From the NCBI GenBank assembly GCA_049510295.1, contig JBEKZC010000005.1, positions 17,546-81,545 on the forward strand: a DNA stretch of 64,000 nt, read 5' to 3'. This document shows, in pieces, positions 5,679-52,831 of the stretch (position 1 is its first letter; the number at the start of each line of letters is the position of its first letter). The notes under the pieces were generated by a model. That model was not told the origin of the DNA. It saw only the letters and a program-made list of their open reading frames with translations, and searched no databases. Both the position numbers and the translations under genes were made by a program. Source of the stretch: Verrucomicrobiota bacterium (GTDB taxonomy: Bacteria > Verrucomicrobiota > Verrucomicrobiia > Limisphaerales > UBA11358).

Positions 5679-6422
5679 TTAAAATTTAAAATTCCACTCG
5701 CGCGTGGCGTATTTATCCCGCGCCAGAGCAAAAATCTTTTCCGTTAAAAAACCTTTCAATGGTTCTTCCGCCTTCCAGGCCTGTCGTAACGCCGCCTTTA
5801 CTTCATTCGCCGGCATGTTCAAATTGGTCAGAAATTCGGTGTGCGCGCGGTGCTCCCGGTAATCGGGCTGCTTCGATGGCATCGGCAAAAGTTCACCGAT
5901 GAGCGCGAGGCCGGAGTCCAGCAGGAATGTTCCGTGAAAAAGCAGGAAGTGTTTGCGGCGGCGCTGGGAGTTGCCGGAAAATTTGCGGTCGCCGATGGCG
6001 AGATCGGTGTGACCGCGCACGGCAATTTCGGGTCTTGGGTCCCGGCTCCTGGATTTGGGCAAGAGGCTTTGCATCGCCGCGCGGTTGCGTTCCATGATGA
6101 ACTGGTTGGCGATGCTGATGCTGTGGAGTGGGCCGTCGGCGGTAATTCGCAGAACCAGCGTGTAGTTGAGGCAGCCGGGTCCTTGCACCACGGTGCCCCC
6201 GCCGGAACAGCGTCGCAGAACCGGGATGCCGCGCGTTTCGCACGCCGCGACGTTCACTTCTGCCGCCACCTTGTTCGCGTAGCCGACGACGACGAAAGGT
6301 TCGCGCGGTTCCCAGAAACGCAGCACCTCGTCGCCGGCACCGGTTTCCGCGGCGTCGAGCAGCACCTCGTCGCCGGCCAGGTTTTCGGCGGGCGAGGGGA
6401 GCGTCAGATCGAGTAATTTCAT
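5679..6422 (-). CDS. lipoate-protein ligase / octanoyltransferase family protein (BPL_LplA_LipB domain)
   Basis: 247 aa with LRFWEP..PFVVVGY...RRCSGGGTVVQGPGCLNYTLV. It is divergent from aceE, which fits the function. Confidence 0.8.
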   Translation of the reverse strand: MKLLDLTLPSPAENLAGDEVLLDAAETGAGDEVLRFWEPREPFVVVGYANKVAAEVNVAACETRGIPVLRRCSGGGTVVQGPGCLNYTLVLRITADGPLHSISIANQFIMERNRAAMQSLLPKSRSRDPRPEIAVRGHTDLAIGDRKFSGNSQRRRKHFLLFHGTFLLDSGLALIGELLPMPSKQPDYREHRAHTEFLTNLNMPANEVKAALRQAWKAEEPLKGFLTEKIFALARDKYATREWNFKF

Positions 6423-6516: not shown

Positions 6517-9192
6517 GTGAGTATTGAGAAAAAGGAAATTCACGGGTCGGGTGACAAATGGGCGGAGTCGCTGCAGTCCGTCTTCGATCTGGCCCTGGAA
6601 AACCAGGGACCGGAACGGACGGCGCAATTGCTGAGAAAACTCGCCGACCGTCTGCGCGCCTCGCAGGACGGGTTGCCGCGCGGTTTTAACACGCCTTACG
6701 TCAACACGATTCCGCCGGAGCAACAGCTGCCGTTTCCCGGCGACTGGCAGATGGAGCGCCGGATCAAGAGCTACATCCGCTGGAACGCCATGGCGATGGT
6801 GGTCAAGGCCAACTCCACCACCAACGTTGGCGGCCACATTTCCACCTACGCCTCGGCGGCGACGCTTTACGAGGTTGGATTCAATCACTTTTTCCGCGGA
6901 CGCACGGAGAATTTTCCAGGCGACATGGTTTATTTTCAGGGTCACGCCGCGCCGGGCATTTATGCGCGTGCGTTTCTCGAAGGCCGTTTGGACGAAAAAC
7001 ATCTGCAAAATTTTCGTCAAGAACTCGCCGCCGGCGGCGGGTTGTCGTCGTATCCGCATCCGTATCTGATGCCGGAGTTCTGGCAGTTCCCGACGGTTTC
7101 CATGGGGCTTGGCCCGCTCCTGTCCATTTATCAGGCGCGGTTTAATCGCTATCTTCAGGCGCGCGGTCTGGCCAAATGGACGGAGGAACCAAAAGTCTGG
7201 TGTTTTGTCGGCGACGGCGAATCGGACGAGCCGGAAACGCTCGGTTCGCTCACACTCGCGTCGCGCGAGAACCTCGACAACCTCATCTGGGTTGTGAATT
7301 GCAATTTGCAGAGACTGGACGGCCCCGTGCGCGGCAATGGCAAAATCATCCAGGAACTCGAAGCCGCATTCCTAGGCGCCGGCTGGAACGTCATCAAGCT
7401 CATTTGGGGCAGTGATTGGGACGATTTGCTTGCGCGCGACAAGTCCGGCCTGCTCGTCAAGCGCATGGAAGAGGCGGTGGATGGCGATTACCAGAAGTAT
7501 TCCGTCGAGCCGGGCAGCTACACGCGCCGGCATTTCTTCGGCAAATATCCCGAACTGCTCGAACTGGTGAACCACCTCACCGACGACCAGATTCGCAAGC
7601 TGTTGCGCGGCGGCCATGACACGCGCAAAGTCCATGCCGCCTACAAAGTGGCGATGGAGCACCAAGGCCGGCCGACGGTGATTTTGGCCAAAACGGTGAA
7701 AGGCTATGGCCTTGGCGAAGCGGGCGAAGGCCGCAACATTTCGCATCAGCAGAAAAAGATGAACGAGAAGGAACTGCGCGAATTCCGCGCGCGGTTCAAC
7801 ATCCCGATCAGCGACGACGTCATTGCCGAGACGCCGTTTTATCGTCCGCCGGCGGACAGTCCGGAGACAAAATATCTGCTCGAGCGACGCAAAATGCTCG
7901 GCGGCTTTTTACCCGCGCGCACGGTCAATCCCGGTTCGCCGGCACTCGACGTGCCCAAGCTCGATTTCTTCGCCGAATTTTTCAAAGGCTCGAGCACGGA
8001 AGTTTCGACGACGATGGCGTTTGTCCGGCTGATCAGCGTTTTGCTGCGGCACAAGGGTTTGAGCCGAAACATCGTGCCCATCATTCCCGACGAGGCGCGC
8101 ACGTTCGGCCTCGACGCGCTGTTCAAAGACATCGGTATTTACTCGTCCAAAGGTCAGGTTTACGAGCCGGTGGACAGCAGTTCATTGCTTTACTACAACG
8201 AAAAGAAGGACGGACAGATTCTCGAAGAAGGCATCACCGAGGCCGGTTCAATGGCGTCGTTCATTGCGGCAGGCACGTCTTACGCGACCCACGGCGTGCC
8301 GATGGCGCCGTTTTACATTTACTACTCGATGTTCGGCCCACAGCGCGTCGGCGACTTGTTCTGGCTGGCGGGTGATATCCGGGCGAAGGGCTTTTTGCTT
8401 GGCGCGACGGCCGGTCGCACCACGCTCAACGGAGAAGGACTCCAGCATCAGGACGGCCACAGCCTGCTTCATGCCGGCACCGTGCCGACGTTGCTGGCCT
8501 ACGATCCGGCGTTCGCGTACGAAATCGCGGTCATTGTGGCTGACGGCCTGCGGCGGATGTATGCCGAAGGTGAGGACATTTTTTATTATCTCACGCTCTG
8601 CAATGAAAATTATCCCATGCCGCCGATGCCGGCGGGTGTCGAGGACGGCATCTTGAAAGGGTTGTATAAATTCAAGCCCGGGCCGGAAGACAGAAAGTTC
8701 AAGGCCCACATCTTTGGCAGCGGGACAATCATCAACTCAGCGCTCAAGGCACAGGAAATCCTGGCAGAACGCTACGGCGTGTCGGCTGATGTGTGGAGCG
8801 CGACGAGCTACAAACTGCTCCGCACCGACGCGCTGCGGTGCAAACGCTGGAACATGTTGCATCCGACGCAGCCACCGAAGAAATCCTACGTGGAGACGTT
8901 GCTGGCGAAAGAGCAGGGTGTCTTTGTCGCGGTTTCGGATTACATGCGGTTGGTGCCTGACCAGATTGCACCGTGGGTGCCGGGCGGCTTGATGACGCTG
9001 GGCACGGACGGCTTTGGCCGCAGCGACACCCGCGCGCGGTTGCGCCGATTTTTTGAAGTGGACGCGGAATCCACCGTCGTCGCCACGCTCTTCGCGCTGG
9101 CGGAGAAAGGTCTCGTGGAACGACAGCTTGTCGCAAAGGCCATCAAAGATCTCGGCGTTGATCCGGAGAAGATTCAACCGCAAATTATCTAA
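6517..9192 (+). CDS. aceE: pyruvate dehydrogenase E1 component, homodimeric type
   Basis: 891 aa with YFQGHAAPGIYARAFLEGRL, a GDGESDEPE ThDP-binding region, and AceE-typical length and C-terminus. Confidence 0.95.
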   Translation: MSIEKKEIHGSGDKWAESLQSVFDLALENQGPERTAQLLRKLADRLRASQDGLPRGFNTPYVNTIPPEQQLPFPGDWQMERRIKSYIRWNAMAMVVKANSTTNVGGHISTYASAATLYEVGFNHFFRGRTENFPGDMVYFQGHAAPGIYARAFLEGRLDEKHLQNFRQELAAGGGLSSYPHPYLMPEFWQFPTVSMGLGPLLSIYQARFNRYLQARGLAKWTEEPKVWCFVGDGESDEPETLGSLTLASRENLDNLIWVVNCNLQRLDGPVRGNGKIIQELEAAFLGAGWNVIKLIWGSDWDDLLARDKSGLLVKRMEEAVDGDYQKYSVEPGSYTRRHFFGKYPELLELVNHLTDDQIRKLLRGGHDTRKVHAAYKVAMEHQGRPTVILAKTVKGYGLGEAGEGRNISHQQKKMNEKELREFRARFNIPISDDVIAETPFYRPPADSPETKYLLERRKMLGGFLPARTVNPGSPALDVPKLDFFAEFFKGSSTEVSTTMAFVRLISVLLRHKGLSRNIVPIIPDEARTFGLDALFKDIGIYSSKGQVYEPVDSSSLLYYNEKKDGQILEEGITEAGSMASFIAAGTSYATHGVPMAPFYIYYSMFGPQRVGDLFWLAGDIRAKGFLLGATAGRTTLNGEGLQHQDGHSLLHAGTVPTLLAYDPAFAYEIAVIVADGLRRMYAEGEDIFYYLTLCNENYPMPPMPAGVEDGILKGLYKFKPGPEDRKFKAHIFGSGTIINSALKAQEILAERYGVSADVWSATSYKLLRTDALRCKRWNMLHPTQPPKKSYVETLLAKEQGVFVAVSDYMRLVPDQIAPWVPGGLMTLGTDGFGRSDTRARLRRFFEVDAESTVVATLFALAEKGLVERQLVAKAIKDLGVDPEKIQPQII

Positions 9193-20693: not shown

Positions 20694-21506
20694 TTACCCT
20701 GCCTTGCGCCGGTAAATTTTGTGTATCGCCGCCTGGTCAACCGGTTTGACGAGCAACTCGTCAATGTTCACGTGCGGCGGGCGGCTGGCAACCCAGACCA
20801 AAATCTCCGCGATGTCTTCCGCCGTCAGGGCGTTTATGCCTTCATAAACTTTTTCCGCCCGCATGGCGTCGCCTTTGAAGCGCACGAGCGAAAATTCTGT
20901 TTCCGCCAGGCCGGGATCAACTGTGCTGACGCGAATGCCGGTGCCGGTTAACTCCATTCGCAGGGCGCGGGTGATTTGCAACTCACCCGCCTTGGCAGCA
21001 CAATACACCGCGCCGCCTTCGTAAGCCGTGTGGCCGGCAACCGAGCCGATGTTGATGATGCTGGCGCCCGCGTCATGCGGCATGAGCGGCAGCGCCGCGC
21101 GCGTCATGCGCAACACACCGAGCACGTTTGTCTGCAACATTGTCTCCCAATCCGCATCCTTGCCCTCGGCGACGCTGTCTTGGCCGTGCGCGCCGCCGGC
21201 GTTGTTGATCAAAACGTGCAAGCGCGTCGGGTCTGGCGTCTGGCATCCGGGGTCTTGGATTTTGGATTTTGCCCAGGCGACGAACGTTTCCACGCTCGGC
21301 GTTTTGGTCACGTCCAAAACGTGAAAATGCGCCTCCCGGGCGCCGGCTTGGCGCGCCTCGGTGGCGACCTTTTCCAGGCGGTCGGTGCGCCGTGCGCCGA
21401 GCAAAAGTCTGGCGCCTTCCGCGCCGAACGCCCGTGCCGCCGCCGCGCCGAATCCACTCGACGCGCCGGTGATTAAAACCCATTTGTCTTTCAACACCGT
21501 TTTCAT
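20694..21506 (-). CDS. SDR-family NAD(P)-dependent oxidoreductase
   Basis: VLITGASSGFGAAAA (TGxxxGxG), NNAG, and the YCAAK active-site motif. Confidence 0.9.
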   Translation of the reverse strand: MKTVLKDKWVLITGASSGFGAAAARAFGAEGARLLLGARRTDRLEKVATEARQAGAREAHFHVLDVTKTPSVETFVAWAKSKIQDPGCQTPDPTRLHVLINNAGGAHGQDSVAEGKDADWETMLQTNVLGVLRMTRAALPLMPHDAGASIINIGSVAGHTAYEGGAVYCAAKAGELQITRALRMELTGTGIRVSTVDPGLAETEFSLVRFKGDAMRAEKVYEGINALTAEDIAEILVWVASRPPHVNIDELLVKPVDQAAIHKIYRRKAG

Positions 21507-21698
21507 GGCTTGATGAATTTATTCAGACGAATTATTTGTTCTTCCGTCAACCTCGCTTCAAAGTTTGAATCTATTCGACAGTTTGTCGAATAAAAAACCA
21601 AGACGCACGGGCAGCCAATGACGACCGCGACAACATCCGAAAGAGTGGACCTTGTGAAAAACGAATGCCCTCCAAATGGCGCGGTTGCGTTTTGAAAT

Positions 21699-21943
21699 TC
21701 AAAGCCGTTTTTTGGCAAAAGCGCGTCCTGAGGCGGTTTTTAAATAATGTTCAAACTTGGCAGCCTGTTCGCGATCGATAAAAGCAATCGCTGTCTTGAT
21801 TCGCCACGGCCGGAATTTGGATGTGTGCGGAACTTCTCCGGCGTTGTGTTTTGAAGCCGGGCACAAAGGCCTTCAGTGCTTCCGGCGTAAAAGTGTTCAG
21901 TAGCAGATTCACTTTGAAGAATGTAAACGTGGTGAAATTACAT
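21699..21943 (-). pseudogene. small GIY-YIG nuclease-family gene, disrupted
   Basis: The reading is ATG-TAA-FHHVYILQSESATEHFYAGSTEGLCARLQ, then a -1 shift in an A4 run, then KHNAGEVPHTSKFRPWRIKTAIAFIDREQAAKFEHYLKTASGRAFAKKRL*. Codon 2 is a stop and there is one frameshift. Confidence 0.65.
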
Positions 21944-21964
21944 TTGTAATCCCCGTATCCGCTA

Positions 21965-22079
21965 CTGAAGAACTGGCTTGCCGAGCCGTAGCCCGCTGGT
22001 AGTGCGTCGTACCAGCCCGCCTACGCGCTATGCGCTTCGGCGCGGCAGCCTTCGTCCTCGCTCCGCTGCGGGCGAAGGC
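21965..22079 (-). repeat. ~110-nt structured tRNA-trailing element (copy 2)
   Basis: It immediately follows the CCA end of tRNA-Ala on the minus strand and is homologous to 19303-19412. Confidence 0.8.
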
Positions 22080-22155
22080 TGGTGGAGCCGACAGGAATCG
22101 AACCTGCGACCTTCTCATTGCGAACGAGACGCTCTGCCAACTGAGCTACGACCCC
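22080..22155 (-). tRNA. tRNA-Ala (anticodon CGC), CCA encoded
   Basis: Manual cloverleaf of GGGGTCGTAGCTCAGTTGGCAGAGCGTCTCGTTCGCAATGAGAAGGTCGCAGGTTCGATTCCTGTCGGCTCCACCA. The G3:U70 Ala identity pair is present. Confidence 0.93.
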
Positions 22156-22396
22156 ATCCACGTCAGCCGCCAATAGCTTCGCCAAAATGATCGCCGGGCG
22201 CAACTGGTTTGTGAACGCAACGGGCGTATTTTGGCACCCAGACATCAAACTGGCGGCTTCCAGCCGCGTGATTCCTCTGCCGTGCCGGTGCTCGGATGCG
22301 TCAGCCCCACGGCAACTCGCCGCTTATCACCAACCGGGAACACGCGACTGAAGTCGGTGTTGGCAATTCCTGTCGCCCTTGCTATTTTCCGGGCGC

Positions 22397-23311
22397 ATGT
22401 CCGACACGGCTGTTGTGGCCCAAACGCCCTCGAAGGCACGAGTGTTTCTCCGCCGGCTGATCACCACGGTGATTCTCTGGACGGTGATTCTCGCGGCTTT
22501 GTTCTCCAGCAGCCGGCTGATTTCCGGCGGCGTTTTCATCCTCATCATGATATTTCTCGCGACGGCCGGACTTGCGGAATTTTACGGACTCGTTGAAAGG
22601 CGCAACCTTGTCTGCTTCAAATGGTGTGGTCTGTCCGGTGGTGTGCTGCTCCTGGTGGGCACGTTTTTGCATCTGACCGGACATCTCGGCATTTACGATT
22701 CGCCGTCGCGCGCGAATGATTTTGAAACGGGTTTCCTCATCCTGTTCGTGCTCGGTTTGTGCGTGCGGCAATTTCTTTCGCGCAGCAACACGGCGGGCAT
22801 TCTGGCGATCTCCACGACCTTGTTTGGCCTGATGTATGTGCCGTGGCTGTTGAACTTCATCCAGAAAATCAATTTTTTCCCCGGGGTGGACGGCAAGTTC
22901 TACGTCCTTTACTTCGTCCTCGTGACGAAATTCAGCGACACCGGCGCGTATGCCGTCGGCTCGCTCATCGGCAAACATAAAATGATTCCACGCATCAGCC
23001 CCGCCAAAACGTGGGAGGGCTTGGGCGGCGCAATTTTTCTTTCGACCGTGGCGAGCCTCGTCTTTGCGCATTTTTTTGGCGATAAAATGGCCGGCATGAA
23101 CTGGCGGCACGCGATGGGGCTGGGTGTTTTGCTGGGTTCGGCGGCAGTTATCGGTGACTTGATTGAATCGCTCTTCAAACGCGAGGCGGGCGTGAAAGAT
23201 TCCGGCGGACTGTTTCCCGGCATCGGCGGCATTCTCGACTTGCTGGACAGTTTGCTGTTCAATGCGCCGATCATGTATCTTTATTTGCGCCATATCCTCA
23301 CGCATCCATGA
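22397..23311 (+). CDS. cdsA: phosphatidate cytidylyltransferase
   Basis: KFSDTGAYAVGSLIGKHKMIPRISPAKTWEG and GDLIESLFKR motifs. The start was moved to the ATG at 22397. Confidence 0.9.
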   Translation: MSDTAVVAQTPSKARVFLRRLITTVILWTVILAALFSSSRLISGGVFILIMIFLATAGLAEFYGLVERRNLVCFKWCGLSGGVLLLVGTFLHLTGHLGIYDSPSRANDFETGFLILFVLGLCVRQFLSRSNTAGILAISTTLFGLMYVPWLLNFIQKINFFPGVDGKFYVLYFVLVTKFSDTGAYAVGSLIGKHKMIPRISPAKTWEGLGGAIFLSTVASLVFAHFFGDKMAGMNWRHAMGLGVLLGSAAVIGDLIESLFKREAGVKDSGGLFPGIGGILDLLDSLLFNAPIMYLYLRHILTHP

Positions 23312-23316
23312 TGGGG

Positions 23317-23340
23317 ATTTACGATTTACGATATACGATT
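23317..23340. repeat. left arm of a perfect 24-bp inverted repeat flanking the four-helix-bundle gene
   Basis: atttacgatttacgatatacgatt. Its reverse complement occurs at 23753-23776. It starts 6 nt after the cdsA stop. Confidence 0.95.
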
Positions 23341-23392
23341 TACGCCCGTGTTGGCAGACCATGATGATTAAACATTCAAAGACTGAACTGCT

Positions 23393-23767
23393 ATGACTCG
23401 TGAAGAAATGAAATCTCGGACGAAGGAATATGCGAATCGCATCGTTCGCGTTTGTGCAGCGCTGCCGAATAATTGGGTCGCGCAAACATTGGGCAAGCAA
23501 CTTCTCCGCAGTGGAACTTCGGTGGGGGCAAACCATCGCGCCGTCTGCCGCGCCAAATCCAACCCGGATTTCATCAACAAGCTTCGTATTGTCGAGGAGG
23601 AATGTGACGAATCGCTTTTTTGGATGGAACTGCTGGTGGACAACAATCTCATCAAGCTGTCCCGACTTGGTGGCCTGATGAAGGAGGCTGATGAAATTCT
23701 GGCCATCATCGTCTCTTCGGCGAAAACCGCGCGAACATCAAATGGACGCGTCAATCGTATATCGTAA
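23393..23767 (+). CDS. four-helix-bundle protein (23S rRNA intervening-sequence protein family)
   Basis: 124 aa with ...LGKQLLRSGTSVGANHRAVCRAKSNPDFINKLRIVEEECDESLFWMELL, which is typical of that family. Confidence 0.85.
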   Translation: MTREEMKSRTKEYANRIVRVCAALPNNWVAQTLGKQLLRSGTSVGANHRAVCRAKSNPDFINKLRIVEEECDESLFWMELLVDNNLIKLSRLGGLMKEADEILAIIVSSAKTARTSNGRVNRIS

Positions 23768-23776
23768 ATCGTAAAT
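23753..23776. repeat. right arm of the perfect 24-bp inverted repeat
   Basis: aatcgtatatcgtaaatcgtaaat. It overlaps the stop of the four-helix-bundle gene and the first two nt of the dxr ATG (23775). Confidence 0.95.
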
Positions 23777-24911
23777 GAAGAACGTTGTTTTACTCGGTTC
23801 GACCGGCTCCATCGGCACCAGCACCGTCAAGGTGGCCGAGGATTTGCCGGACCGCATCCGGCTGGTCGGCCTGGCCGCCGGGAACAACGCCGAACTGTTG
23901 CTCAAACAGGCGCGCAAACACCGGCCCGAGGCGATTTCAATCAACCATCCCGAAAAAGCCCGCGACCTGGGAAAATTCTTCGGGGCGGCGACACAGGTTT
24001 ATTCGGGCGACGAAGGCCTGATCAAACTTGCCACGCTGCCGGCGGCGGACATCGTGCTCATTGCCATCGTCGGCACGGCGGGATTAAAGCCCGCGCTCGC
24101 CGCTATTCGTGCGGGCAAGGATATTGCCATCGCGTCGAAGGAAATTCTTGTGATGGCCGGCGAAATCGTGATGAGCGAGGCGCGCAAACACGGCGTTCGC
24201 GTGCTCGCCGTGGACAGCGAACATTCGGCAATTTTTCAGTGTCTCGATGGCAAGCCGTCCAATTCCGTCCGCAAACTCTGGCTGACGGCGTCCGGCGGAC
24301 CGTTTCGCAACACGCCGAAGGAGGAATTTCCAGACATCACCGTTGAGCGCGCGCTCAAACATCCGTCGTGGGTCATGGGCAAAAAAATCACCATTGATTC
24401 GGCGACGCTGTTCAACAAGGGGCTGGAAATGATTGAAGCGCGCTGGCTGTTTGACATCGGCCTGGAACGTGTGGGCGTGCTGGTGCATCCGCAAAGCATC
24501 GTTCATTCCATGGTGGAATTTGTGGATGGAGCGCTGCTCGCGCAGCTTTCGACGCCGGACATGTGTCTGCCGATTCAATACGCATTGACGTATCCCGATC
24601 GCGCGCCGAGTGAGCGGGTGCAGACCAATTTCGCAAAACTCGGCAATCTGACGTTTGAAGAACCGGATGAGGAACGTTTTCCGGCGCTGAAACTCGCGCG
24701 CCGGGCAGGGGAGGTGGGCGGCACGTTGCCGGCGGTGTTGAACGCGGCGAACGAGGTGGCGGTCGAAGCGTTTGTGAATCGCAAAATTAATTTCCCGCAA
24801 ATCACGGAAATCGTGCGTTGCACGATGGATGCGCACAAAGTTGTGTTGCACCCGGCGCTGGAACAAATTTTGGAGGCTGATGCCTGGGCGCGGTGCGAAG
24901 CGGCAAAATAA
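23775..24911 (+). CDS. dxr: 1-deoxy-D-xylulose-5-phosphate reductoisomerase
   Basis: VVLLGSTGSIGTSTVKV, the SEHSAIFQC motif, and NAANEVAV. Confidence 0.95.
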   Translation: MKNVVLLGSTGSIGTSTVKVAEDLPDRIRLVGLAAGNNAELLLKQARKHRPEAISINHPEKARDLGKFFGAATQVYSGDEGLIKLATLPAADIVLIAIVGTAGLKPALAAIRAGKDIAIASKEILVMAGEIVMSEARKHGVRVLAVDSEHSAIFQCLDGKPSNSVRKLWLTASGGPFRNTPKEEFPDITVERALKHPSWVMGKKITIDSATLFNKGLEMIEARWLFDIGLERVGVLVHPQSIVHSMVEFVDGALLAQLSTPDMCLPIQYALTYPDRAPSERVQTNFAKLGNLTFEEPDEERFPALKLARRAGEVGGTLPAVLNAANEVAVEAFVNRKINFPQITEIVRCTMDAHKVVLHPALEQILEADAWARCEAAK

Positions 24912-24915
24912 AAAA

Positions 24916-24964
24916 ATCGTCCTCGTCCTCGTAATCGAAAAACAAGAGTCGAGGACGAGAACGA
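24916..24964 (+). terminator. hairpin downstream of dxr (low-complexity palindromic repeat)
   Basis: tcgtcctcgtcctcg ... cgaggacgagaacgag, preceded by an A-run. It may be a terminator or another repeat family. Confidence 0.35.
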
Positions 24965-25021
24965 GAACAAAGAACGAGGCCGATTGCGCGCGGCAGGTGG
25001 CGAAATAGACGGCTCCTTCCC

Positions 25022-25273
25022 TCACCGATTTGAAACTTCGGCGGTGCAGCTTGTCCTGATGTTAGGCGACGATTTGCGGACACTCTCATCATTGACTCCT
25101 GTGACGCTCAACTCCAAACCAGTCTGGGTCACGTCGGCAAACAAACGTGCTCCGTCCTCAAACTCAATGCCAAGCGCTCCGTCTCGATGTCTCCAGATTC
25201 GTTTCACGACTTTGCCGCGCAACATTTCAGTGGCGCGATTCGCTTCGTCTTGGAGTGACGATGACATAAACAC
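25022..25273 (-). CDS. small hypothetical protein
   Basis: 83-aa ORF in an otherwise empty spacer. No motif was recognised. Confidence 0.3.
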   Translation of the reverse strand: MFMSSSLQDEANRATEMLRGKVVKRIWRHRDGALGIEFEDGARLFADVTQTGLELSVTGVNDESVRKSSPNIRTSCTAEVSNR

Positions 25274-25412
25274 GTACAGCGGTATACCAGATAATGGACG
25301 GATGCCCGCAAAGTCGGGACAGCCTATCCAGTTTCATGTGCCAACCCTATTTCCGTCGTCCGTGGCTGTCCAGAATGATTTTGGTTCAACGCGCCACCTC
25401 ACCCTGAATCTC

Positions 25413-25518
25413 GTAGCCGCGGACGTCAGTCCGCGCCAAAATAATTCTGGGAAAAGACTTCCAAACCGGGAAGTTTGCGCCGACTGATGTCGGCGGCTAC
25501 GGTTCAGGAATTCAACGC
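25413..25518. repeat. GTAG-type REP doublet (REPIN-like), family 1b, intergenic copy
   Basis: GTAGCCGC-GGACgtcaGTCC-GC ... GCGCCGACtgatGTCGGC-GGCTAC followed by GGTTCAGGAATTCAACGC. It has the same ends as the copy inside tsaD. Confidence 0.85.
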
Positions 25519-25650
25519 TCGCCTTTTTTTGTTGCGGCGTTTTTTCTACCTGAAAAACGGCTGGTGGCGGTAACTTGCGTTCCGTGATTGCGGGCAAAGT
25601 TTTCCCTGATATATTCAGGGCGTCCCTTCGTAAGGGGCGGATTTTTTTAC

Positions 25651-27045
25651 ATGACCATTTTGAATGTCATTTACGTTATTGCCGCCGTGTTGGCTTTGTT
25701 TGGCGCGGCCATTTTCATCCATGAGTTCGGCCATTTCTGGGTCGCGCGGAAGCTGGGCATGAAGGTCGAGGAATTCGCCGTCGGTTTTGGCCCGAAAATT
25801 TACAGTTGGAAGCGCGATGGCATTGAATACTCAATCCGTTGGATTCCGGCTGGCGGTTTTGTGAAGTTGCCACAGATGATTACCTCCGAGGCGCTCGAAG
25901 GCCAGTCGGTGGAAGAAGTTCCGCCGGCGCCGCCCGGGCACAAAATTCTCGTCGCCTTCGCCGGACCGTTCATGAATGTTGTCTTTGCATTCGCCATCGC
26001 TACGGTCATTTATTTTGTCGGCCTGCCCATTCCGGTAAATCCAGCCATCATCGGCTATGTCGAACCGGGGTCGGTGGAAGCCAAACTCGGCATTCATGAA
26101 GGCGATCGCATCGTGTCGGTGAATGGCGAGAAGGTGAAATCCTGGCAGGACGTGGTGCTGGATACGGTGGTGGCGCGCACGAACCTTCTGCCGGTGGTCA
26201 TTGAACATGACGGCAAGGAAAGCACGTATCAACTCCAGGCAACGGCCGACAACGCCATCGGCCTGAAGCTGCTCAATCTCGATCCGCGTGACCATCCCGA
26301 AGTAATGGAGGTTGTTTCCGGCAGTGCGGCGGAAAGGGCTGGCTTGAAGCAAGGCGACCACATCATCTCATTAGCTGGTGTGCCCATTGCCAGCCGCGAA
26401 CAACTGATTGACATTATTCACAAACGCGGCGGACAACCCACCGAAATGCGGATTGATCGCGGCGCGCAAAAAGTGGCGCTTAACATCACGCCGACGGTTG
26501 ATCCGACGACCAAAGGCGGGAGAATCGGCGTCATGCTCGGCACGGATTCGACACAGGTTTACATTGTCCAGAAGCCGGGGCCGACGCCGTTGGAACAAGT
26601 GCGCGACGTGATGGATAAAACATTCGCGACCATCGGCGCGCTCATTCATTCACGGGAAACGGGCGTGGGCGCAAAAGATTTGTCCGGGCCGGTCGGCATC
26701 CTCGCCATTCTCGCCAATGCGGTGAATAGTGACTATCGCCTGGCTTTGAGTTTTCTGGTGTTGCTCAACATCAACCTCGCGATCATCAATTTGCTGCCGA
26801 TTCCTGTGCTCGACGGCGGACACATTCTGATGGCGATCATTGAAAAAATTCGCCGCCGGCCGTTGAGCATCAAATTCGTTGAATACACCACGACCGGCTT
26901 CGCGGTGTTGCTGATTTCGTTCATGCTTTACGTGACTTTTTTTGACATCAAGCGGTTTTCGCTGTTCCGCGCGATGTTCAAAAGCGACGTGCAAATTCAG
27001 CAATCGGCGCAGCCAGCGGAAACCGCGCCGGCCCAGCCCAAATAA
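25651..27045 (+). CDS. rseP: RIP metalloprotease RseP (site-2 protease, M50)
   Basis: HEFGHFWVARKLGM (HExxH), PDZ-like middle region, and a C-terminal LNLAIINLLPIPVLDGGH. The start was moved to the ATG at 25651. Confidence 0.9.
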   Translation: MTILNVIYVIAAVLALFGAAIFIHEFGHFWVARKLGMKVEEFAVGFGPKIYSWKRDGIEYSIRWIPAGGFVKLPQMITSEALEGQSVEEVPPAPPGHKILVAFAGPFMNVVFAFAIATVIYFVGLPIPVNPAIIGYVEPGSVEAKLGIHEGDRIVSVNGEKVKSWQDVVLDTVVARTNLLPVVIEHDGKESTYQLQATADNAIGLKLLNLDPRDHPEVMEVVSGSAAERAGLKQGDHIISLAGVPIASREQLIDIIHKRGGQPTEMRIDRGAQKVALNITPTVDPTTKGGRIGVMLGTDSTQVYIVQKPGPTPLEQVRDVMDKTFATIGALIHSRETGVGAKDLSGPVGILAILANAVNSDYRLALSFLVLLNINLAIINLLPIPVLDGGHILMAIIEKIRRRPLSIKFVEYTTTGFAVLLISFMLYVTFFDIKRFSLFRAMFKSDVQIQQSAQPAETAPAQPK

Positions 27046-27048
27046 TTC

Positions 27049-28935
27049 ATGCGTTACTGCGAATCCCCGTTTTTCCATCACCGGCGAAAGACCCGCGAAG
27101 TCGTCATCGGTGATCCGGCGCGTGGCGGGGTCATCATCGGGGGCGACCATCCCGTCGTGAAGCAGTCCATGCTCACCTGCGACACGATGGATACCGCCGA
27201 ATCCGTCAAACAGACGCTCGATCTCGTTGCCGTCGGCTGCCAGCTCGTCCGCATCACCGCGCCAACCGTGAAGGACGCGGCGAACCTGCAGAACATTGTT
27301 GCCGAGCTGCATAAACGCGGCTGTTTCGTGCCGATTGTGGCGGACATCCATTTCAAGCCGGAAGCGGCGATGGAAGCGGTTAAGTGGGTTGAGGTCGTGC
27401 GCGTCAATCCCGGCAATTACGCCGACTCAAAGAAATTTGCCATCAAGGAATACACGAACGAGCAATATGCCGCCGAGTTGAAGCGCATTGAGGAAAAATT
27501 CGCGCCGCTCGTGCTGGAATGCATCCGCCTGAAACGCTGCCTGCGCATCGGCACCAACCACGGCTCGTTGAGCGACCGCATCATGAATCGCTATGGCGAC
27601 ACGCCGCTCGGCATGGTGGAGAGCGCGCTGGAATTCGCCCGCATCTGCCGCCAGCACAACTTCCACAATTTCAAGTTCTCGTTGAAGTCGTCGAATCCGA
27701 AAGTGATGATCGAGTGCTACCGGCTGTTGGTGGCGCGGCTGGAACAGGAAGGGCCGGATTGGAATTATCCGATTCATCTCGGCGTCACCGAAGCAGGCGA
27801 GGGCGAGGATGGTCGCATCAAGAGCGCCATCGGCATCGGTTCGCTGTTGTGCGACGGCCTGGGCGACACGATTCGCGTCTCGCTCACGGAGGATTCGCCG
27901 CGTGAAATCGAAGTCTGCACCGATTTGCTGGCGCAGATTCCCCATCTCACACTTTCGGAAGGGCGAGTTCCACGAGCCCCCAATTCAAAATGCGAAAAAA
28001 GTTTGGGGCTCGCGGAACTCGCCCCTCCGAACTCTTTTCCGTTCGACCCGTTCCACTTCGAGCGTCGCAAAACACCGGAAATTGAGCTGGTTGACGGCGT
28101 GAAATGCGGCGGCGAACAGCTCATCCGCGTGGTCGTCACCCGCGCCACGTGGGACAAGGTGGCTCCGAAGATTCGGCCCAAGGATGACGTGAAACCGGAA
28201 GCGGTCTATGAAGACCTGAACATTGCCGAGATTGACCCCACCAAGGATTTTGAAATCAACTGTGAGACGCAACTTGTCACCGTGAAGGACGGCGTAAACC
28301 TGCCGGCCATCACAGCGTTTCGTTTGCTGGCTTTGAAACTGAAGCGGCTCGGACGCAACAATCCGATTTTGCTGAAGGACTGCCTGGAGTTTGGTAGCCG
28401 CCGCCGTGAGTCGGCGCAAAACTCACCCGCGAAGGAAGGTGCGCCGACTGACTTCGTCGGCGACGAAGTTCTTGAACCGAAAATCGCTCTGCTGCGGGCA
28501 TCGGTGGTCATTGGTTCGTTGCTGGCGGATGGCGTTGGCGACGCAATTTTGATTCGCGGCGAGGCCGGTGGCGGACAATCACTGCGGCTGGCTTACAACA
28601 TTTTGCAGGCGGCGGGTTGCCGTTCGTTCAAGACCGATTACGTGGCGTGTCCGTCATGTGGGCGGACGCTGTTCAATCTTCAGACCGTCACCGCGCGCAT
28701 CAAATCGCGCACGGAACATCTCAAGGGCGTGAAGATCGCGATCATGGGTTGCATCGTGAACGGCCCGGGCGAGATGGCCGACGCGGATTTCGGCTACGTG
28801 GGCGGCGCGCCGGGCAAGATCAATCTTTACGTTGGCAAGCAAGCCATCAAATTCAACATCCCCGAAACCGAGGCCGTGGACCGTCTGGTGGACCTCATCA
28901 AGGAACACAACAAGTGGATGGAGCCGGAAACGTAA
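27049..28935 (+). CDS. ispG: 4-hydroxy-3-methylbut-2-en-1-yl diphosphate synthase, long form
   Basis: VRVNPGNYAD, VACPSCGRT and MGCIVNGPGE. The 628-aa length indicates the insert-domain type. Confidence 0.93.
   Translation: MRYCESPFFHHRRKTREVVIGDPARGGVIIGGDHPVVKQSMLTCDTMDTAESVKQTLDLVAVGCQLVRITAPTVKDAANLQNIVAELHKRGCFVPIVADIHFKPEAAMEAVKWVEVVRVNPGNYADSKKFAIKEYTNEQYAAELKRIEEKFAPLVLECIRLKRCLRIGTNHGSLSDRIMNRYGDTPLGMVESALEFARICRQHNFHNFKFSLKSSNPKVMIECYRLLVARLEQEGPDWNYPIHLGVTEAGEGEDGRIKSAIGIGSLLCDGLGDTIRVSLTEDSPREIEVCTDLLAQIPHLTLSEGRVPRAPNSKCEKSLGLAELAPPNSFPFDPFHFERRKTPEIELVDGVKCGGEQLIRVVVTRATWDKVAPKIRPKDDVKPEAVYEDLNIAEIDPTKDFEINCETQLVTVKDGVNLPAITAFRLLALKLKRLGRNNPILLKDCLEFGSRRRESAQNSPAKEGAPTDFVGDEVLEPKIALLRASVVIGSLLADGVGDAILIRGEAGGGQSLRLAYNILQAAGCRSFKTDYVACPSCGRTLFNLQTVTARIKSRTEHLKGVKIAIMGCIVNGPGEMADADFGYVGGAPGKINLYVGKQAIKFNIPETEAVDRLVDLIKEHNKWMEPET
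28394..28465. repeat. degenerate family-1b REP doublet inside the ispG reading frame
   Basis: gtagccgccgccgtgagtcggcgcaaaa...ggtgcgccgactgacttcgtcggcgacg aligns with both ends of the 25413 element. GAGTCGGCGCA/TGCGCCGACT form a stem. It is translated as ..SRRRESAQNSPAKEGAPTDFVGD.. Confidence 0.55.
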
Positions 28936-35637: not shown

Positions 35638-37362
<1,725 letters not shown>

Positions 37363-39031: not shown

Positions 39032-39127
39032 TCCGGAACGCCCCGCACCCCGGCTGTTCCAGTAGTGAGTCAATTTGATGAAAGCTGGTGGACGGATGGA
39101 GACGAAATCACAAGCAAAACCCCAAAC

Positions 39128-39239
39128 CCCAAACCATAATGACTAAAGAATGCTCAAACAACCAGGTGGCCAAACCGGCCCACCTCCACCGCGCATTCGA
39201 GCTTCGGACTTTGGGTTTCTTTCGTCATTATGGTTTGGG
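39128..39239. repeat. long hairpin (23-bp arms, 1 mismatch) in the ispD-ctp spacer
   Basis: cccaaaccataatgacTaaagaa (39128-50) pairs with ttctttCgtcattatggtttggg (39217-39), with a 66-nt loop. It is flanked by ccccaaa and gtcattc short tandem repeats. Confidence 0.75.
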
Positions 39240-41989: not shown

Positions 41990-44683
41990 ATGGCTGACCG
42001 TTTGCCCATTTACGAAATCGAGCGCGACATCGTCGTCCGGCTGAAAGCCGGCCGGCGGCTGATTTTGTCCGCGCCGACCGGTTCCGGCAAATCCACGCAG
42101 GTGCCGCAGATGCTGCTCCGGCACGGACTGCTCGGCGACGGGCAGGTGGTGATTCTTCAGCCGCGCCGGCTGGCTACGCGGTTGCTCGCGTCGCGCGTGG
42201 CGCAGGAACTCGGCGTCCAGCTTGGCAACGAAATCGGCTACCAAATCCGCTTCGAAAATGTCACGTCGCCGCAGACGAAAATCCGTTTTGTGACGGAAGG
42301 CGTTTTGTTGCGGCAGATGATTGACGATCCAAAGCTGCGCGGCGTTGCCGTCTTGATCTTCGACGAATTTCACGAGCGGCATCTTTACGGCGACATCACG
42401 CTGGCGCGCGCACTGGATTTGCAGGAGCAGCACCGGCCCGACCTGAATCTCATCGTCATGTCCGCCACGCTCGATGCAGAGTTGCTGGAGGATTATCTTT
42501 CCCAATGTAGCAGCGGACGTGAGTCCGCTCATTCTTCTTCGGCGGAAAGTCAGAGCCGACTCACGTCGGCTGCTACAAATAATTTTCGCTGCTCCATCCT
42601 TTCCTCTGAAGGCCGGGTGTTCCCGGTTGAAATCAAATATGCCGCGGAGCCGGGTTACACGGGCAAACGCCCGGTTTGGGAACAGGCTGCCGAGGCCTTC
42701 AGCCACTACGTCGGCTCCGGTGGGGAAGGGGACGTGCTGGTGTTCATGCCGGGAGGTTATGAGATTTCGCAGACCATCGAGGCCATCCGGCACACTTCGG
42801 AGTCGAAAGGTTTTATTTTGCTTCCGTTGCACGGTGAACTTTCGCCCAAAGACCAGGACGCCGCAGTGGCGCGTTACGGTCAGCGTAAAGTGGTCGTTTC
42901 CACCAATGTCGCCGAGACCTCGCTGACCATTGACGGCATCCGGCTGGTGATTGACAGCGGGCTGGCGCGCATTCCGCGTTACGATCCGTATCGCGGCATC
43001 AATACGCTGCTCATCGAAAAGATCAGCCAATCGTCCGCCGACCAGCGCACGGGTCGGGCGGGTCGCACCGTGCCGGGTGTTTGCATGAGGCTTTGGTCGC
43101 GGGAGGAACATGGACATCGGCTGGTTCAGGAACTGCCCGAAATCAAGCGGCTTGATCTGGCCGAAGTGGTGCTCACGCTCAAAGCCGCCGGGGTCGAAGA
43201 TTTGCGGAAATTCCGCTGGCTCGAAAAGCCGGACGAAATTTCGCTCACCCATGCGGAGGAATTGTTGCTGGATTTGGGTGCGCTCCAACGTAGGACAGGC
43301 GTCCCGCCTGTCTCCAATCAATTTCCCGCTCAAGCGCAACAGAAAGTTGGAGACAGGCTGGAAGCCTGTCCTACGTTAATAACCTCCATCGGCTGCAAGA
43401 TGCTCGCCTTTCCGCTACATCCGCGCTACTCGCGCATGTTGCTCGCGGCGCAGGAATACGGCTGCGTTCATCAAGCCTGCCTCGTTGCCGCGCTCACGCA
43501 GGGGCGCGATTTGCTTTTGCGGAATGTGGACCGCGACACGAATTCGTTCCGTGAGGATTTGCTCGGCGACAAGCCGTCGTCCGACTTCTGGATTCTCATG
43601 CGCGCGTGGACTTATGCGGCCAAAAACCAATTCCGCCTCGACGCCTGCCGCCGGCTTGGCATCCACGCCGTGACCGCGCGGCAGGTCGGGCCGTTGTTCG
43701 AACAGTTCCTTCGCATCGCCAAAGATGAAGGTCTCGATGTAAAAGCACGGGAAGTGAAAGATGATGCTTTGCAAAAGTGCATTCTCATCGGGTTTTCCGA
43801 CCGCGTGGCGCGCCGGCTCGACCAGGGCACACTCCGTTGTGAATTGGTTCATAATCGTCGCGGTGTGCTGGCGCGTGAAAGCGCCGTGCAACACAGTCCC
43901 TTGTTCGTTGCCGCCGAAGTCCGCGAAGTCGAGGGCAGGGAAGTGAACACCATTCTTTCCCTGGCCACCGCCATTGAAGTGGACTGGTTGCGCGAACTGT
44001 TCCCCGAAGACATGGAGTCGGATTTGCATGTCCAATTCGATTCAACGGCAAAACGGGTGCAAGCTGCGGAATTGTTGAAGTTTCGCGGCTTGGCGTTGTC
44101 GGCCAAACGCGTTGAACCGCCGCCGGCCGACATGGCGGCACGATTGCTGGCCGATGAGATAATTGCCGGACGATTGCCGTTGCCGAATTGGGATCACAGT
44201 GTCGAGCAATGGCTGTTGCGGCTGCGCCTGCTTTGCCAGCATTGTCCCGAGCTCCAGCTTCCGCCCATCACCGAAGATGACCGCAAGCACATCATCGGGC
44301 AGCTTTGCCACGGCGCGGTGAGCTACAAGGACATCAAGGAACGTGAAGTAAAACCGGTCGTGATGTCGTGGCTGTCCGAGGCGCAGCGCGGGTTGCTGGA
44401 CAAGCACGCGCCGGAGCGGTTGACGCTGCCAAACGGCCGCACGCCGAAGGTCGCTTACGAGGCAACCGGCTTGCCGCATATTTCGTTGCGCATCCAGGAG
44501 CTTTACGACGTGACCCAGACGCCGAAGATTGCGCTGGGGCGCGTGCCGGTGCTGGTCCACATTCTGACCCCGGGCATGAAGCCGATCCAGATTACACAGG
44601 ACCTGACCAGTTTCTGGCGTGAGCACTATCCGCGCATCAAATCCGAGTTGCAGCGGAAATATCCGAAACACCTGTGGCGATGA
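41990..44683 (+). CDS. hrpB: ATP-dependent RNA helicase HrpB (DEAH box; carries two in-frame repeat insertions)
   Basis: APTGSGKST, FDEFHERH, MSATLD, VVSTNVAETSLTI, QRTGRAGR and a C-terminal HrpB-type domain. The start was chosen at the ATG at 41990. Confidence 0.9.
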   Translation: MADRLPIYEIERDIVVRLKAGRRLILSAPTGSGKSTQVPQMLLRHGLLGDGQVVILQPRRLATRLLASRVAQELGVQLGNEIGYQIRFENVTSPQTKIRFVTEGVLLRQMIDDPKLRGVAVLIFDEFHERHLYGDITLARALDLQEQHRPDLNLIVMSATLDAELLEDYLSQCSSGRESAHSSSAESQSRLTSAATNNFRCSILSSEGRVFPVEIKYAAEPGYTGKRPVWEQAAEAFSHYVGSGGEGDVLVFMPGGYEISQTIEAIRHTSESKGFILLPLHGELSPKDQDAAVARYGQRKVVVSTNVAETSLTIDGIRLVIDSGLARIPRYDPYRGINTLLIEKISQSSADQRTGRAGRTVPGVCMRLWSREEHGHRLVQELPEIKRLDLAEVVLTLKAAGVEDLRKFRWLEKPDEISLTHAEELLLDLGALQRRTGVPPVSNQFPAQAQQKVGDRLEACPTLITSIGCKMLAFPLHPRYSRMLLAAQEYGCVHQACLVAALTQGRDLLLRNVDRDTNSFREDLLGDKPSSDFWILMRAWTYAAKNQFRLDACRRLGIHAVTARQVGPLFEQFLRIAKDEGLDVKAREVKDDALQKCILIGFSDRVARRLDQGTLRCELVHNRRGVLARESAVQHSPLFVAAEVREVEGREVNTILSLATAIEVDWLRELFPEDMESDLHVQFDSTAKRVQAAELLKFRGLALSAKRVEPPPADMAARLLADEIIAGRLPLPNWDHSVEQWLLRLRLLCQHCPELQLPPITEDDRKHIIGQLCHGAVSYKDIKEREVKPVVMSWLSEAQRGLLDKHAPERLTLPNGRTPKVAYEATGLPHISLRIQELYDVTQTPKIALGRVPVLVHILTPGMKPIQITQDLTSFWREHYPRIKSELQRKYPKHLWR
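42507..42576. repeat. GTAG-type REP doublet, family 1a, in frame inside hrpB
   Basis: gtagcagcggacgtgagtccgctc...agagccgactcacgtcggctgctac. It is nearly identical to the intergenic copy at 48116-48184. It is translated as CSSGRESAHSSSAESQSRLTSAAT. Confidence 0.9.
43287..43376. repeat. GTAG-type REP doublet, family 3, exactly 90 nt, in frame inside hrpB
   Basis: AACGTAGGACAGGCgtcccGCCTGTCTCC ... GGAGACAGGCtggaaGCCTGTCCTACGTT. A partial copy lies at 46607-46636. It is translated as QRRTGVPPVSNQFPAQAQQKVGDRLEACPT. Confidence 0.85.
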
Positions 44684-50373: not shown

Positions 50374-50687
50374 ACGTCTTTGGTCCTAAATGTTGCACTG
50401 GCCGGCACAACGGCCGGCCAACAGTGCTGACACTAATTGCGGGCGCGTGGTTCGGCAAATAAAAATTGAATCCCAATTCGTCAAACCGACACCTCGCAGC
50501 ACGGGGGCGCATGTTCTGTTGCCCGCCATTGGCTGCCGCCGCAATGGCATCGCGAAACGTCGCATCCAGCGCAGCGAGAGTCGACCAAGGCGTTGATGGT
50601 TGAGAGTTGAGGTTGAGGGCTGATCCACCTTTGGTGTGCTGAGGCGTGACGCTTCGCGGAGTTGAGAGGGGCGGGCGATATTCCCGC

Positions 50688-52024: not shown

Positions 52025-52831
52025 ATGAAAAAATACTGGCATGTCATCGGCATCGGGATTCAAAACAACCTGACGTATCGCGTCAATTACCTGACGCGAA
52101 CGCTGTTCAGTTTCATCCCGCTGTTTGCCATGCTGTCGCTTTGGCGCACGATTTACGCGGGGAAAGGGCAGGGGAGCGCGCTCGGCGGTTACACCCAGGC
52201 GCAGATGATTTTTTACTACCTGCTCGTGGCCGTGGTGGACGTGCTGACGGCGGTGAACGAGGATGACTGGCAGATCGCCGCGGACATCCGCGAAGGCAAC
52301 ATCAGCCAGTTCCTGCTCAAGCCGATTGATTATCTGTGGTACCGGCTGTGCCTGTTTTTTTCCGGGCGCATCGCGTTCATCTCCATGGCGTGCGTGCCGC
52401 TGGCGGTTTTTATTTTCTGCTTCCGGGATTATGCAGTCTGGCCGGCCAGCGGGGCGGCGCTGCCCGCCTTTGTGATTTCGCTCGTGCTGACGGCGCTGCT
52501 GCAATTCTTTATTTCCTACACGATGGCCATGCTGGCGTTCTGGCTGCTGGAAATTTCAACGTTCATTTTCATTCTGTTCGCCTTCGAATTCCTGGCCAGC
52601 GGCCATTTGTTCCCGCTCGACCTGTTGCCGCCCGTGATCGGCCACGCGCTTTTTTTCACGCCGTTTCCGTCCATGCTTTACGTTCCTATTGCCATTTACA
52701 TGGGCAAAATCGCCGGGGCCGGCATCTGGTTCGGATTGTTGGGGCAATTGTCATGGTTGCTGCTCGCCTATTGCCTCGCACGGTTCGCGTGGCGGCGCGG
52801 CATCAGGAAATACGCCGCGTTTGGAGGATGA
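52025..52831 (+). CDS. ABC-2-type transporter permease-like protein
   Basis: 268 aa with 6 TM segments. The N-terminus is YRVNYLTRTLFSFIPLFAMLSLW. The family call comes from general architecture only. Confidence 0.5.
   Translation: MKKYWHVIGIGIQNNLTYRVNYLTRTLFSFIPLFAMLSLWRTIYAGKGQGSALGGYTQAQMIFYYLLVAVVDVLTAVNEDDWQIAADIREGNISQFLLKPIDYLWYRLCLFFSGRIAFISMACVPLAVFIFCFRDYAVWPASGAALPAFVISLVLTALLQFFISYTMAMLAFWLLEISTFIFILFAFEFLASGHLFPLDLLPPVIGHALFFTPFPSMLYVPIAIYMGKIAGAGIWFGLLGQLSWLLLAYCLARFAWRRGIRKYAAFGG

Follow-up and report, generated by a model that had tools for sequence, protein, structure and literature searches.

A heptamer-armed four-helix-bundle cassette resembling 23S rRNA intervening sequences in the cdsA-dxr spacer of a Verrucomicrobiota bacterium

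What kind of element is a small gene enclosed by inverted arrays of a 7-base repeat and wedged between one essential gene's stop codon and the next one's start codon? The question is posed by a 460-base cassette in the spacer between cdsA and dxr of a Verrucomicrobiota bacterium (Limisphaerales, UBA11358; assembly GCA_049510295.1, contig JBEKZC010000005.1, positions 17,546 to 81,545), and the 64,000 nucleotides analyzed are referred to here as the window. Inside the arrays lies a single small four-helix-bundle (4HB) gene, and an earlier note on the same DNA had likened the arrangement to the intervening sequences (IVS) of 23S rRNA. In our reading, to which we assign a probability of about 70%, it is a small promoterless hairpin cassette of the selfish type, the same kind of element as the S23p-encoding 23S rRNA IVS, resident in an mRNA operon. 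For 30 years the S23p IVS has been a curiosity of rRNA genes, with its mobility under debate; the same design is now seen between essential protein genes. What is new here is the IVS design in mRNA spacers, which has so far been described only within 23S rRNA.

Architecture of the cassette

The arms and the enclosed gene occupy the spacer between cdsA (phosphatidate cytidylyltransferase; 22379-23311, plus strand; PF01148, 1.2e-52), which ends with a TGA at 23309-23311, and dxr (1-deoxy-D-xylulose 5-phosphate (DXP) reductoisomerase; 23775-24911, plus strand; TIGR00243, 2.1e-140), whose ATG at 23775-23777 takes its AT from the end of the element. A repeat finder placed the arms at 23317-23345 and 23748-23776, both 29 nt long, with 28 of 29 positions paired (97% complementarity). 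Their 24-nt core, ATTTACGATTTACGATATACGATT, is complementary at all 24 positions and is present in the 64 kb at these two sites only, with a chance expectation of 0 over 100 shuffles. Both arms are period-7 arrays according to Tandem Repeats Finder (TRF; 4.1 and 4.0 copies): the left arm (plus strand) reads ATTTACG ATTTACG ATATACG ATTTACG C, and the right arm (plus strand) reads GCGTCAAT CGTATAT CGTAAAT CGTAAAT. The earlier note had described perfect 24-bp terminal inverted repeats built of 7-mers, a left arm 6 nt after the cdsA stop and a right arm ending within the dxr ATG, and all of this was borne out. The left arm starts at the sixth base past the stop, after a 5-nt junction (TGGGG, 23312-23316, plus strand; 0-5 nt among orthologous filled sites), and the last base of the right arm is the T of the ATG. 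The G+C content is about 0.46-0.48 at both ends of the element and about 0.53 in its middle, as against 0.56-0.64 in the flanks.

The cargo gene (23393-23767, plus strand) encodes a 124-residue four-helix-bundle protein of the 23S_rRNA_IVP/S23p/Avd-like family, in agreement with the earlier assignment to the IVS family; it matches PF05635 at 2.9e-15 and TIGR02436 at 4.3e-23, and its closest solved structure is 2RLD (4.5e-18). Relatives are numerous (6,634 word-indexed matches at E <= 1e-5, with 80% identity or more in each of the best 120, and 9,337 representatives of clusters at E <= 1e-3), and the median dN/dS of the gene is 0.09 over 1,017 pairs. The cargo protein is functional and under strong purifying selection. 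The family motif GxxRxxxSxxxNxxE corresponds to RSGTSVGANHRA (residues 39-50) in the window protein, where the conserved Glu is replaced by Ala, as it is in a Planktothrix homolog (NYRAA); the Glu is kept in 2RLD. A phage collection, used as a control for Avd, gave two weak, unannotated hits only.

Two short features in the cassette touch on translation. In the loop, an 11-codon mini-ORF (open reading frame; MMIKHSKTELL, 23361-23396, plus strand) ends in a TGA that overlaps the ATG of the 4HB gene as ATGA; it is also found in the closest orthologs displayed (L014, L017, L021 and probably L020), with a modified form in L015, and could couple the initiation of the cargo gene. At the other end, the right arm contains the TAA of the cargo gene (23765-23767), which precedes the dxr ATG by 7 nt, and stop codons close all three frames there (23765, 23772 and 23776).

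Folding the RNA of the entire region, a check that the earlier note had proposed, predicted the terminal stem in both the minimum free energy (MFE) and the centroid structure, and a mini-construct of the two arms reached -43.6 kcal/mol (z = -8.4). Promoter and terminator scans recovered no promoter-like site, no plus-strand terminator-like site and no T-tract terminator inside the element; a single weak terminator-like site was found there on the minus strand (23449-23432). An Rfam scan of 21000-26000 assigned no family inside the element, the sole hit above gathering threshold being a tRNA. Among all six-frame ORFs of the window, phmmer identified no further copy of the 4HB gene, and a TCGTAAA pair at 47169/47184, considered as a second copy, was dropped as coincidental coding sequence.

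Insertion, turnover and spread

Junctions in relatives were compared, as the earlier note had suggested, by a Dxr protein scan restricted to one genome per species, which yielded 48 Verrucomicrobiota loci, mostly from Limisphaerales metagenome-assembled genomes and with 72-97% Dxr identity. Mapping of cdsA, the 4HB gene and dxr on these loci resolved four junction states. In the empty state the TGA of cdsA and the ATG of dxr share bases as ATGA (L019, with 94% Dxr identity, and L024, L034 and L054), and spacers of 1-2 nt separate the two genes in several other loci. The same 4HB cassette, 440-531 nt long, fills the junction in 11 of the 48 loci, and likewise in the orthologous contigs L001-L006, which were found via the protein. 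Relatives with empty ATGA junctions share 79-94% Dxr identity with the window, and those with filled junctions 80-100%. The base preceding the TGA, which is the A of the old ATG, is always A in empty sites and may be A, T, G or C in filled ones. Because close relatives have empty ATGA junctions and this base varies at filled sites, the sequence comparison identifies the cassette as an insertion into a site where the cdsA stop and the dxr start once overlapped as ATGA.

The remaining states involve other occupants of the same junction. ORF-less hairpins of 82-121 nt with arms of tandem 7- or 8-mers occur in further loci: an octamer hairpin with GGAGTGTT arms (118 nt, 5883-6000) in the closest relatives of the window (L009, L010, L013 and L016), hairpins with AGAATGC units in L018 and CCAAGACA units in L027 and, in L022 and L023, arms of the ATTTACG type that enclose no gene. 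Two loci with 95% Dxr identity instead carry a GxxExxY gene of the PD-(D/E)xK nuclease family (L011, 5543-6000; L012, 5551-6000), the product of which matches TIGR04256 at 1.6e-38 and PF13366 (PDDEXK_3) at 1.2e-36, and which is bracketed by inverted tandem CACAGATGAA arrays of period 10-11 (TRF). A neighbor-joining tree of dxr places the window in a shallow clade in which loci of the 4HB, octamer-hairpin, GxxExxY and empty types are intermixed, and the sister of the window there carries the octamer hairpin. Heptamer copy number differs among loci and between the arms of one element. Taken from these alignments, the cdsA-dxr junction appears to be a hot spot with rapid turnover, and the empty sites, alternative cargos and ORF-less derivatives in sister genomes point to an inserted, exchangeable unit.

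Three further arrangements were observed around this junction. Only the left-arm remnant of the GxxExxY cassette type remains in L028. A composite in L055 (5693-6009) has outer ATTTACG x4 arms around a second cdsA 3' end, a truncated GxxExxY cassette of the CACAGAT type and a second dxr 5' end, so that a foreign copy of the same junction seems to have replaced the cargo. A second 4HB cassette, 31% identical, lies between dxr and rseP in L005 (5515-6042) and in L010, L012 and L020 (about 7134-7663); its arms are of the AATGACG/AATAACA type, with the dxr stop inside the left arm, and the window is without it.

The same cassette was also found in other spacers. A metagenome scan added 80 loci. 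An unbiased Smith-Waterman comparison, which sought complementarity between the sequences on either side of each gene, recovered ATTTACG-type arms at about 95 of 100 copies (66-99% identity), with a median arm of 30 nt and a mean complementarity of 91%. Clustering of the flanking genes distinguished at least eight contexts, including cdsA|dxr, lpxC-fabZ|lpxA, flotillin upstream of three different genes, a gene of unknown identity|gnd, sdhA|sdhB and rodZ-like|pgsA, along with a few additional singletons; the rodZ-like|pgsA pair is convergent. In nearly all scorable Limisphaerales contexts the cargo gene is co-directional with the upstream gene. Across contexts, similarity begins exactly at ATTTACG, the outer boundary of the element, and ceases exactly at CGTAAAT. 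Between the upstream stop codon and the left arm there are 0-6 nt, or else the arm supplies the last A of that codon, and the downstream ATG follows the right arm by 0-12 nt; GA/GA or ATGA on both sides is seen only at cdsA|dxr, where function requires it. Copies are about as similar between contexts (identity 0.76) as within a context (0.78), and since the nearest relatives of a copy often sit in another context, these comparisons indicate movement or conversion between sites.

Distant homologs were retrieved from plasmids. A tblastn search of PLSDB returned homologs with 29-60% identity from Planktothrix, Gloeocapsa, Nostoc, Dolichospermum, Anabaena, Pseudanabaena, Euhalothece, Chlorohelix (Chloroflexota), Bernardetia and Chondrinema (both Bacteroidota) and Treponema, and 12 of the regions were fetched. 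Four phyla beyond Verrucomicrobiota are represented: Cyanobacteriota, Chloroflexota, Bacteroidota and Spirochaetota. The gene lies within clear inverted tandem arrays in 11 or 12 of the 12 copies, and all 12 have period-7 arrays (TRF) with differing units. In Planktothrix, which holds the closest plasmid homolog (60% identity), the units are ATTTACG, ATTTTGG and ATTGGGG, and the unit of the window is therefore shared across phyla; elsewhere they are ATTTTAG, GATTGGA, TAATTCG, CAATTCG, GAAAGNG, CTGGTCA, AAGTAAA and CAGTTAA. Across families, the arms of any one element are always inverted arrays of one unit. Ten of the 12 copies lie between co-directional genes. Several contexts are of the defense type (drmD|pglX, DUF1156|Swt1-HEPN twice and csx2|cas1); the others comprise helicase|methylase, RND adaptor|permease, fabH|M20, DMT transporter|DUF4832, mobC|integrase and, in Nostoc punctiforme, a series of hypothetical genes. 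As judged from these loci, bacteria of no fewer than five phyla have the same design between the genes of an operon. The strict period of 7 nt in all five, in which the unit changes along with the protein, suggests that the 4HB protein reads the arrays.

Some plasmid loci have particular features. Among L169-L180, 4HB cassettes occur in DISARM/BREX loci, in DUF1156-HEPN loci (Gloeocapsa and Chlorohelix), at csx2|cas1 and antisense at cas2|cas1. In the drmD-pglX locus of a Planktothrix agardhii plasmid (L169, 1238-2030), two complete hairpins that lack an ORF flank the 4HB gene, in place of a single pair of arms. The arms of the cassette on the Chondrinema plasmid (L180, 1260-1928) contain TAACTGA and TCAGTTA.

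The earlier note had proposed an IVS-like mobile cassette and had asked whether other 4HB genes carry inverted repeats of their own, a lack of which it would have taken as speaking against the proposal. About 95 of 100 close copies and 11 or 12 of the 12 distant ones do carry them, and the empty sites and the eight or more contexts lend the proposal further support.

Relation to known systems and rival explanations

The best-described counterpart is the IVS of Coxiella, a 428-nt sequence with a 28-bp stem that contains three tandem GACAGAT heptamers, the number of which varies between strains, and in which RNase III cuts at the first heptamer (PMC4990558). IVS of Coxiella, Leptospira, Xanthomonas and Brucella encode the S23p protein, and the ORF of the Coxiella IVS has been reported as decaying and untranslated (PMC4990558). 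The window element resembles these IVS in its PF05635/TIGR02436 protein, in its size class (about 430-480 nt) and in the enclosure of an ORF by a terminal stem of about 28 bp; a stem of tandem heptamers with variable copy number is shared with Coxiella, and a patchy distribution, long suspected to mean mobility, with rRNA IVS in general. It differs in lying in an mRNA spacer between protein genes instead of helix 25/45 of 23S rRNA, in the strong purifying selection on its ORF compared with that of Coxiella, and in that RNase III cleavage is represented here by a predicted duplex only. By sequence and predicted structure, the element has all structural features of an S23p IVS except the location in 23S rRNA, and the likeness to rRNA IVS geometry drawn by the earlier note thus extends to the heptamers documented in the Coxiella stem.

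Other families of short repeats share some of these features. By one account, the hairpin of Correia elements (CREE) binds RNase III and is either cleaved or protected, which changes the expression of adjacent genes (PMC2649163). Like CREE and the Neisseria miniature insertion sequences (NEMIS), and like MITEs (miniature inverted-repeat transposable elements) in operons, the window element is short, intergenic and bounded by terminal inverted repeats, and it is probably transcribed with its neighbors; unlike it, CREE are non-coding, have TA target duplications and have arms without tandem short repeats. A MITE or Correia-like identity was rejected, as there is no fixed target duplication and a conserved ORF is present (dN/dS 0.09). 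In repetitive extragenic palindromic (REP) doublet systems with their associated tyrosine transposase (REPIN/RAYT, or REPtron), one small gene also lies within inverted copies of a short repeat and ORF-less hairpin derivatives exist, but the cargo here is not a Y1 (RAYT) transposase, has no evident catalytic motif and is flanked by arrays instead of single palindromes. With PF05635 as the only enclosed gene and no Y1 HUH transposase, a REPtron was ruled out. Avd of diversity-generating retroelements (DGRs) is a pentameric four-helix bundle and an adaptor for nucleic acid and protein (PMC10053308), and the cargo protein has a homologous fold; the avd genes of DGRs, unlike the cargo gene, have not been described with heptamer arrays on either side. 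A DGR accessory gene was ruled out by the neighbors cdsA, dxr, rseP and ispG and by the lack of an RVT domain or a template/variable repeat next to the gene or its orthologs, and an integron gene cassette by the repeats on both sides of the gene and the lack of an integrase in the contexts examined.

Heptamer arrays themselves have been described repeatedly. GGGAATC arrays form 70-75 convergent pairs in Xanthomonas, and GGGGATT arrays occur in Nostoc (PMC4692102), where the repeat, which is equivalent to ATTGGGG, has been described as G-quadruplex-forming; TAACTGA arrays immediately precede start codons in Beggiatoaceae, Cyanobacteria and Bacteroidetes (PMC4679880). These arrays and cyanobacterial short tandemly repeated repetitive (STRR) sequences share with the window arms the tandem 7-nt spacer units, often 0-12 nt from a start codon. 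The taxa that carry them overlap with those rich in 4HB genes, and two of the units were recovered in cassette arms (ATTGGGG in Planktothrix and TAACTGA in Chondrinema). Most TAACTGA sets, in contrast to the window arms, are direct repeats, and the array papers link none to a cargo gene or an IVS. In the open-access literature we found no paper in which 4HB genes located in mRNA spacers are connected with heptamer arrays on their flanks, which is not proof of absence. 23S_rRNA_IVP genes have also been noted in 18 cas loci and read as having a CRISPR-associated function (PMC3936711), an association that may merely mean cassette insertion between operon genes.

Conservation of the arms exceeds that of their surroundings. 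Where fourfold sites are saturated (p-distance 0.6-0.8; local alignment), about 26 nt of the non-coding left arm can still be aligned, with an identity of about 90%, and the 41-nt spacer beside it has no alignable similarity at the same divergence. Heptamer variants are equally frequent in both arms, and mirrored variant heptamers are visible by eye in L160, L166, L102 and L121. The octamer hairpin at the junction is about 10 kcal/mol better as sense than as antisense RNA, through 5-8 G.U pairs, an asymmetry that the ATTTACG arms lack.

Several results weigh against the reading as a mobile IVS-like cassette that acts through its RNA stem. Among 80 distinct arm pairs, mismatches of the G.U type (45) were no more frequent than those of the A.C type (47), and the complementarity of an arm to its own partner (45.0) was barely above that to arms of other elements (42.1; p = 3e-4), with no excess over close relatives (p = 0.55); selection on RNA pairing as such is not demonstrated in the ATTTACG family. 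Because of this lack of G.U excess and the small margin over cross-element pairing, the simplest reading of the arm sequences is sequence-specific recognition of a unit particular to each family, for which pairing is required as well, but more coarsely. That the 4HB protein itself binds the heptamers is held with low confidence and is pure inference. No target-site duplication was detected, and the flanking dinucleotides differ over at least eight contexts; nor was a transposase, integrase or recombinase found in or near the element, either in the window or at the orthologous loci examined. Mobility is for these reasons deduced only from the distribution of copies. Finally, two of the 12 plasmid copies are antisense to their neighbors, and at cdsA|dxr the cassette is kept in lineages down to 80% Dxr identity, which would also fit a retained useful module.

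The mechanism that we propose for a cassette of the IVS kind starts from its transcription as part of cdsA-dxr; in this step and the two that follow we have moderate confidence. In the RNA, the arms would form a duplex of about 29 bp that brings the cdsA stop next to the dxr start and that, by homology with the IVS of Coxiella and Leptospira, is a likely substrate of RNase III. Ribosomes translating the cargo gene would open up the right arm and would stop 7 nt short of the dxr ATG. Because cargo translation ends so close to this ATG, with all three frames closed, dxr translation could stay coupled, and an essential operon would tolerate the insertion. Processing by RNase III and masking of the dxr start codon, both raised by the earlier note, are plausible from the folding model and from analogy with rRNA IVS. 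With low confidence, we further suggest that the cargo protein, whose solved relatives form pentamers, recognizes the heptamer arrays by their sequence, as RNA or DNA, and so serves maintenance or spread of the element, for which the moving enzyme would not be encoded by the element itself.

The alternatives differ mainly in what the arms are taken to do. If the element were a recombination cassette acting at the DNA level, the inverted arrays would be protein-binding or hairpin/cruciform sites (cf. attC and REP/RAYT ends) and the RNA stem a by-product. The strand symmetry of the mismatches and the equal heptamer variants in both arms are what such a cassette predicts, as are the conservation of the unit sequence and not just of pairing, the unequal copy number between arms and the swapping of cargo within the same kind of arms (4HB, GxxExxY or none, and the L055 composite). 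We nevertheless consider it unlikely: neither the element nor its surroundings encode a recombinase, the octamer hairpin favors sense RNA, and the homologous rRNA IVS are demonstrably processed as RNA. Co-directional cargo in nearly all scorable Limisphaerales contexts, and in the 10 plasmid cases mentioned above, also argues for dependence on host transcription.

Somewhat less probable again is a domesticated regulatory module, in which hairpin and 4HB protein would tune dxr, and with it isoprenoid synthesis, relative to cdsA by gating RNase III cleavage or dxr initiation. Retention at the junction over 80-100% Dxr identity would be expected of such a module, and strong purifying selection on the protein, conserved arm sequences and the embedding of the dxr ATG in the stem agree with it as well. 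However, very close relatives are without the cassette or have an unrelated hairpin or GxxExxY gene in its place, and the cassette also lies between unrelated gene pairs and in plasmid defense operons of other phyla; because neither is expected of a dxr-specific regulator, the comparison disfavors one. An ordinary intergenic gene with chance or terminator-like flanking repeats has nothing beyond the small size of the feature to recommend it, and we regard it as extremely improbable given 0 chance matches, no T-tract, and arms in about 95% of some 100 copies and in 11 or 12 of 12 distant homologs.

A wider proposal that builds on the IVS-like cassette is tentative, and we think it doubtful, although better placed than either of the two main rivals. 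Here rRNA IVS would be only those few members that reside in rRNA, out of a class of transposase-free cassettes found in operon spacers throughout bacteria, in which inverted arrays of a family-specific 7-nt unit are read by their own pentameric 4HB protein and which insert at stop/start junctions and move by an undescribed mechanism, possibly via RNA released by RNase III or via hairpin DNA. GxxExxY cassettes, with their unit of 10-11 nt, would be a sister type. If true, the proposal would explain the heptamer arrays of Xanthomonas, Nostoc and Beggiatoa, and also the apparent association of IVP genes with cas and defense loci. For annotation, the practical point is that such cassettes split translationally coupled genes and are not to be taken as functional partners of their neighbors.

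Other repeats and features of the window

Several other repeats were observed in the window. Six bases past the dxr stop, a mini-hairpin (24917-24964) has arms of tandem hexamers (TCGTCC x2.7 and CGAGGA/CGAGAA). A REP-like palindrome with 28-nt arms lies at 25412-25501 and has relatives at 28391-28467 and 42506-42577. At an operon junction, from 6 nt past the stop of the ORF at 52025-52831 to the next gene, two adjacent, non-complementary heptamer arrays (TGAAGGC x4.7, then CGTCACC x5.0; 52837-52908) form no hairpin partners. TCAACCC x5.9 (36179-36219, inside the ORF at 35638-37362) and GTTGAG(G) x4.2 (50592-50618) are reverse complements 14.4 kb apart. Upstream of cdsA, a tRNA is encoded on the minus strand (22083-22155, 66 bits), and short minus-strand ORFs in a stretch of low G+C content (21503-21866) resemble gene fragments. 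An intergenic hairpin at 39117-39239, with 23-nt arms of 96% complementarity and a left side that opens with AAACCCC x2.7, may be another ORF-less member of the class of hairpins with tandem-repeat arms.

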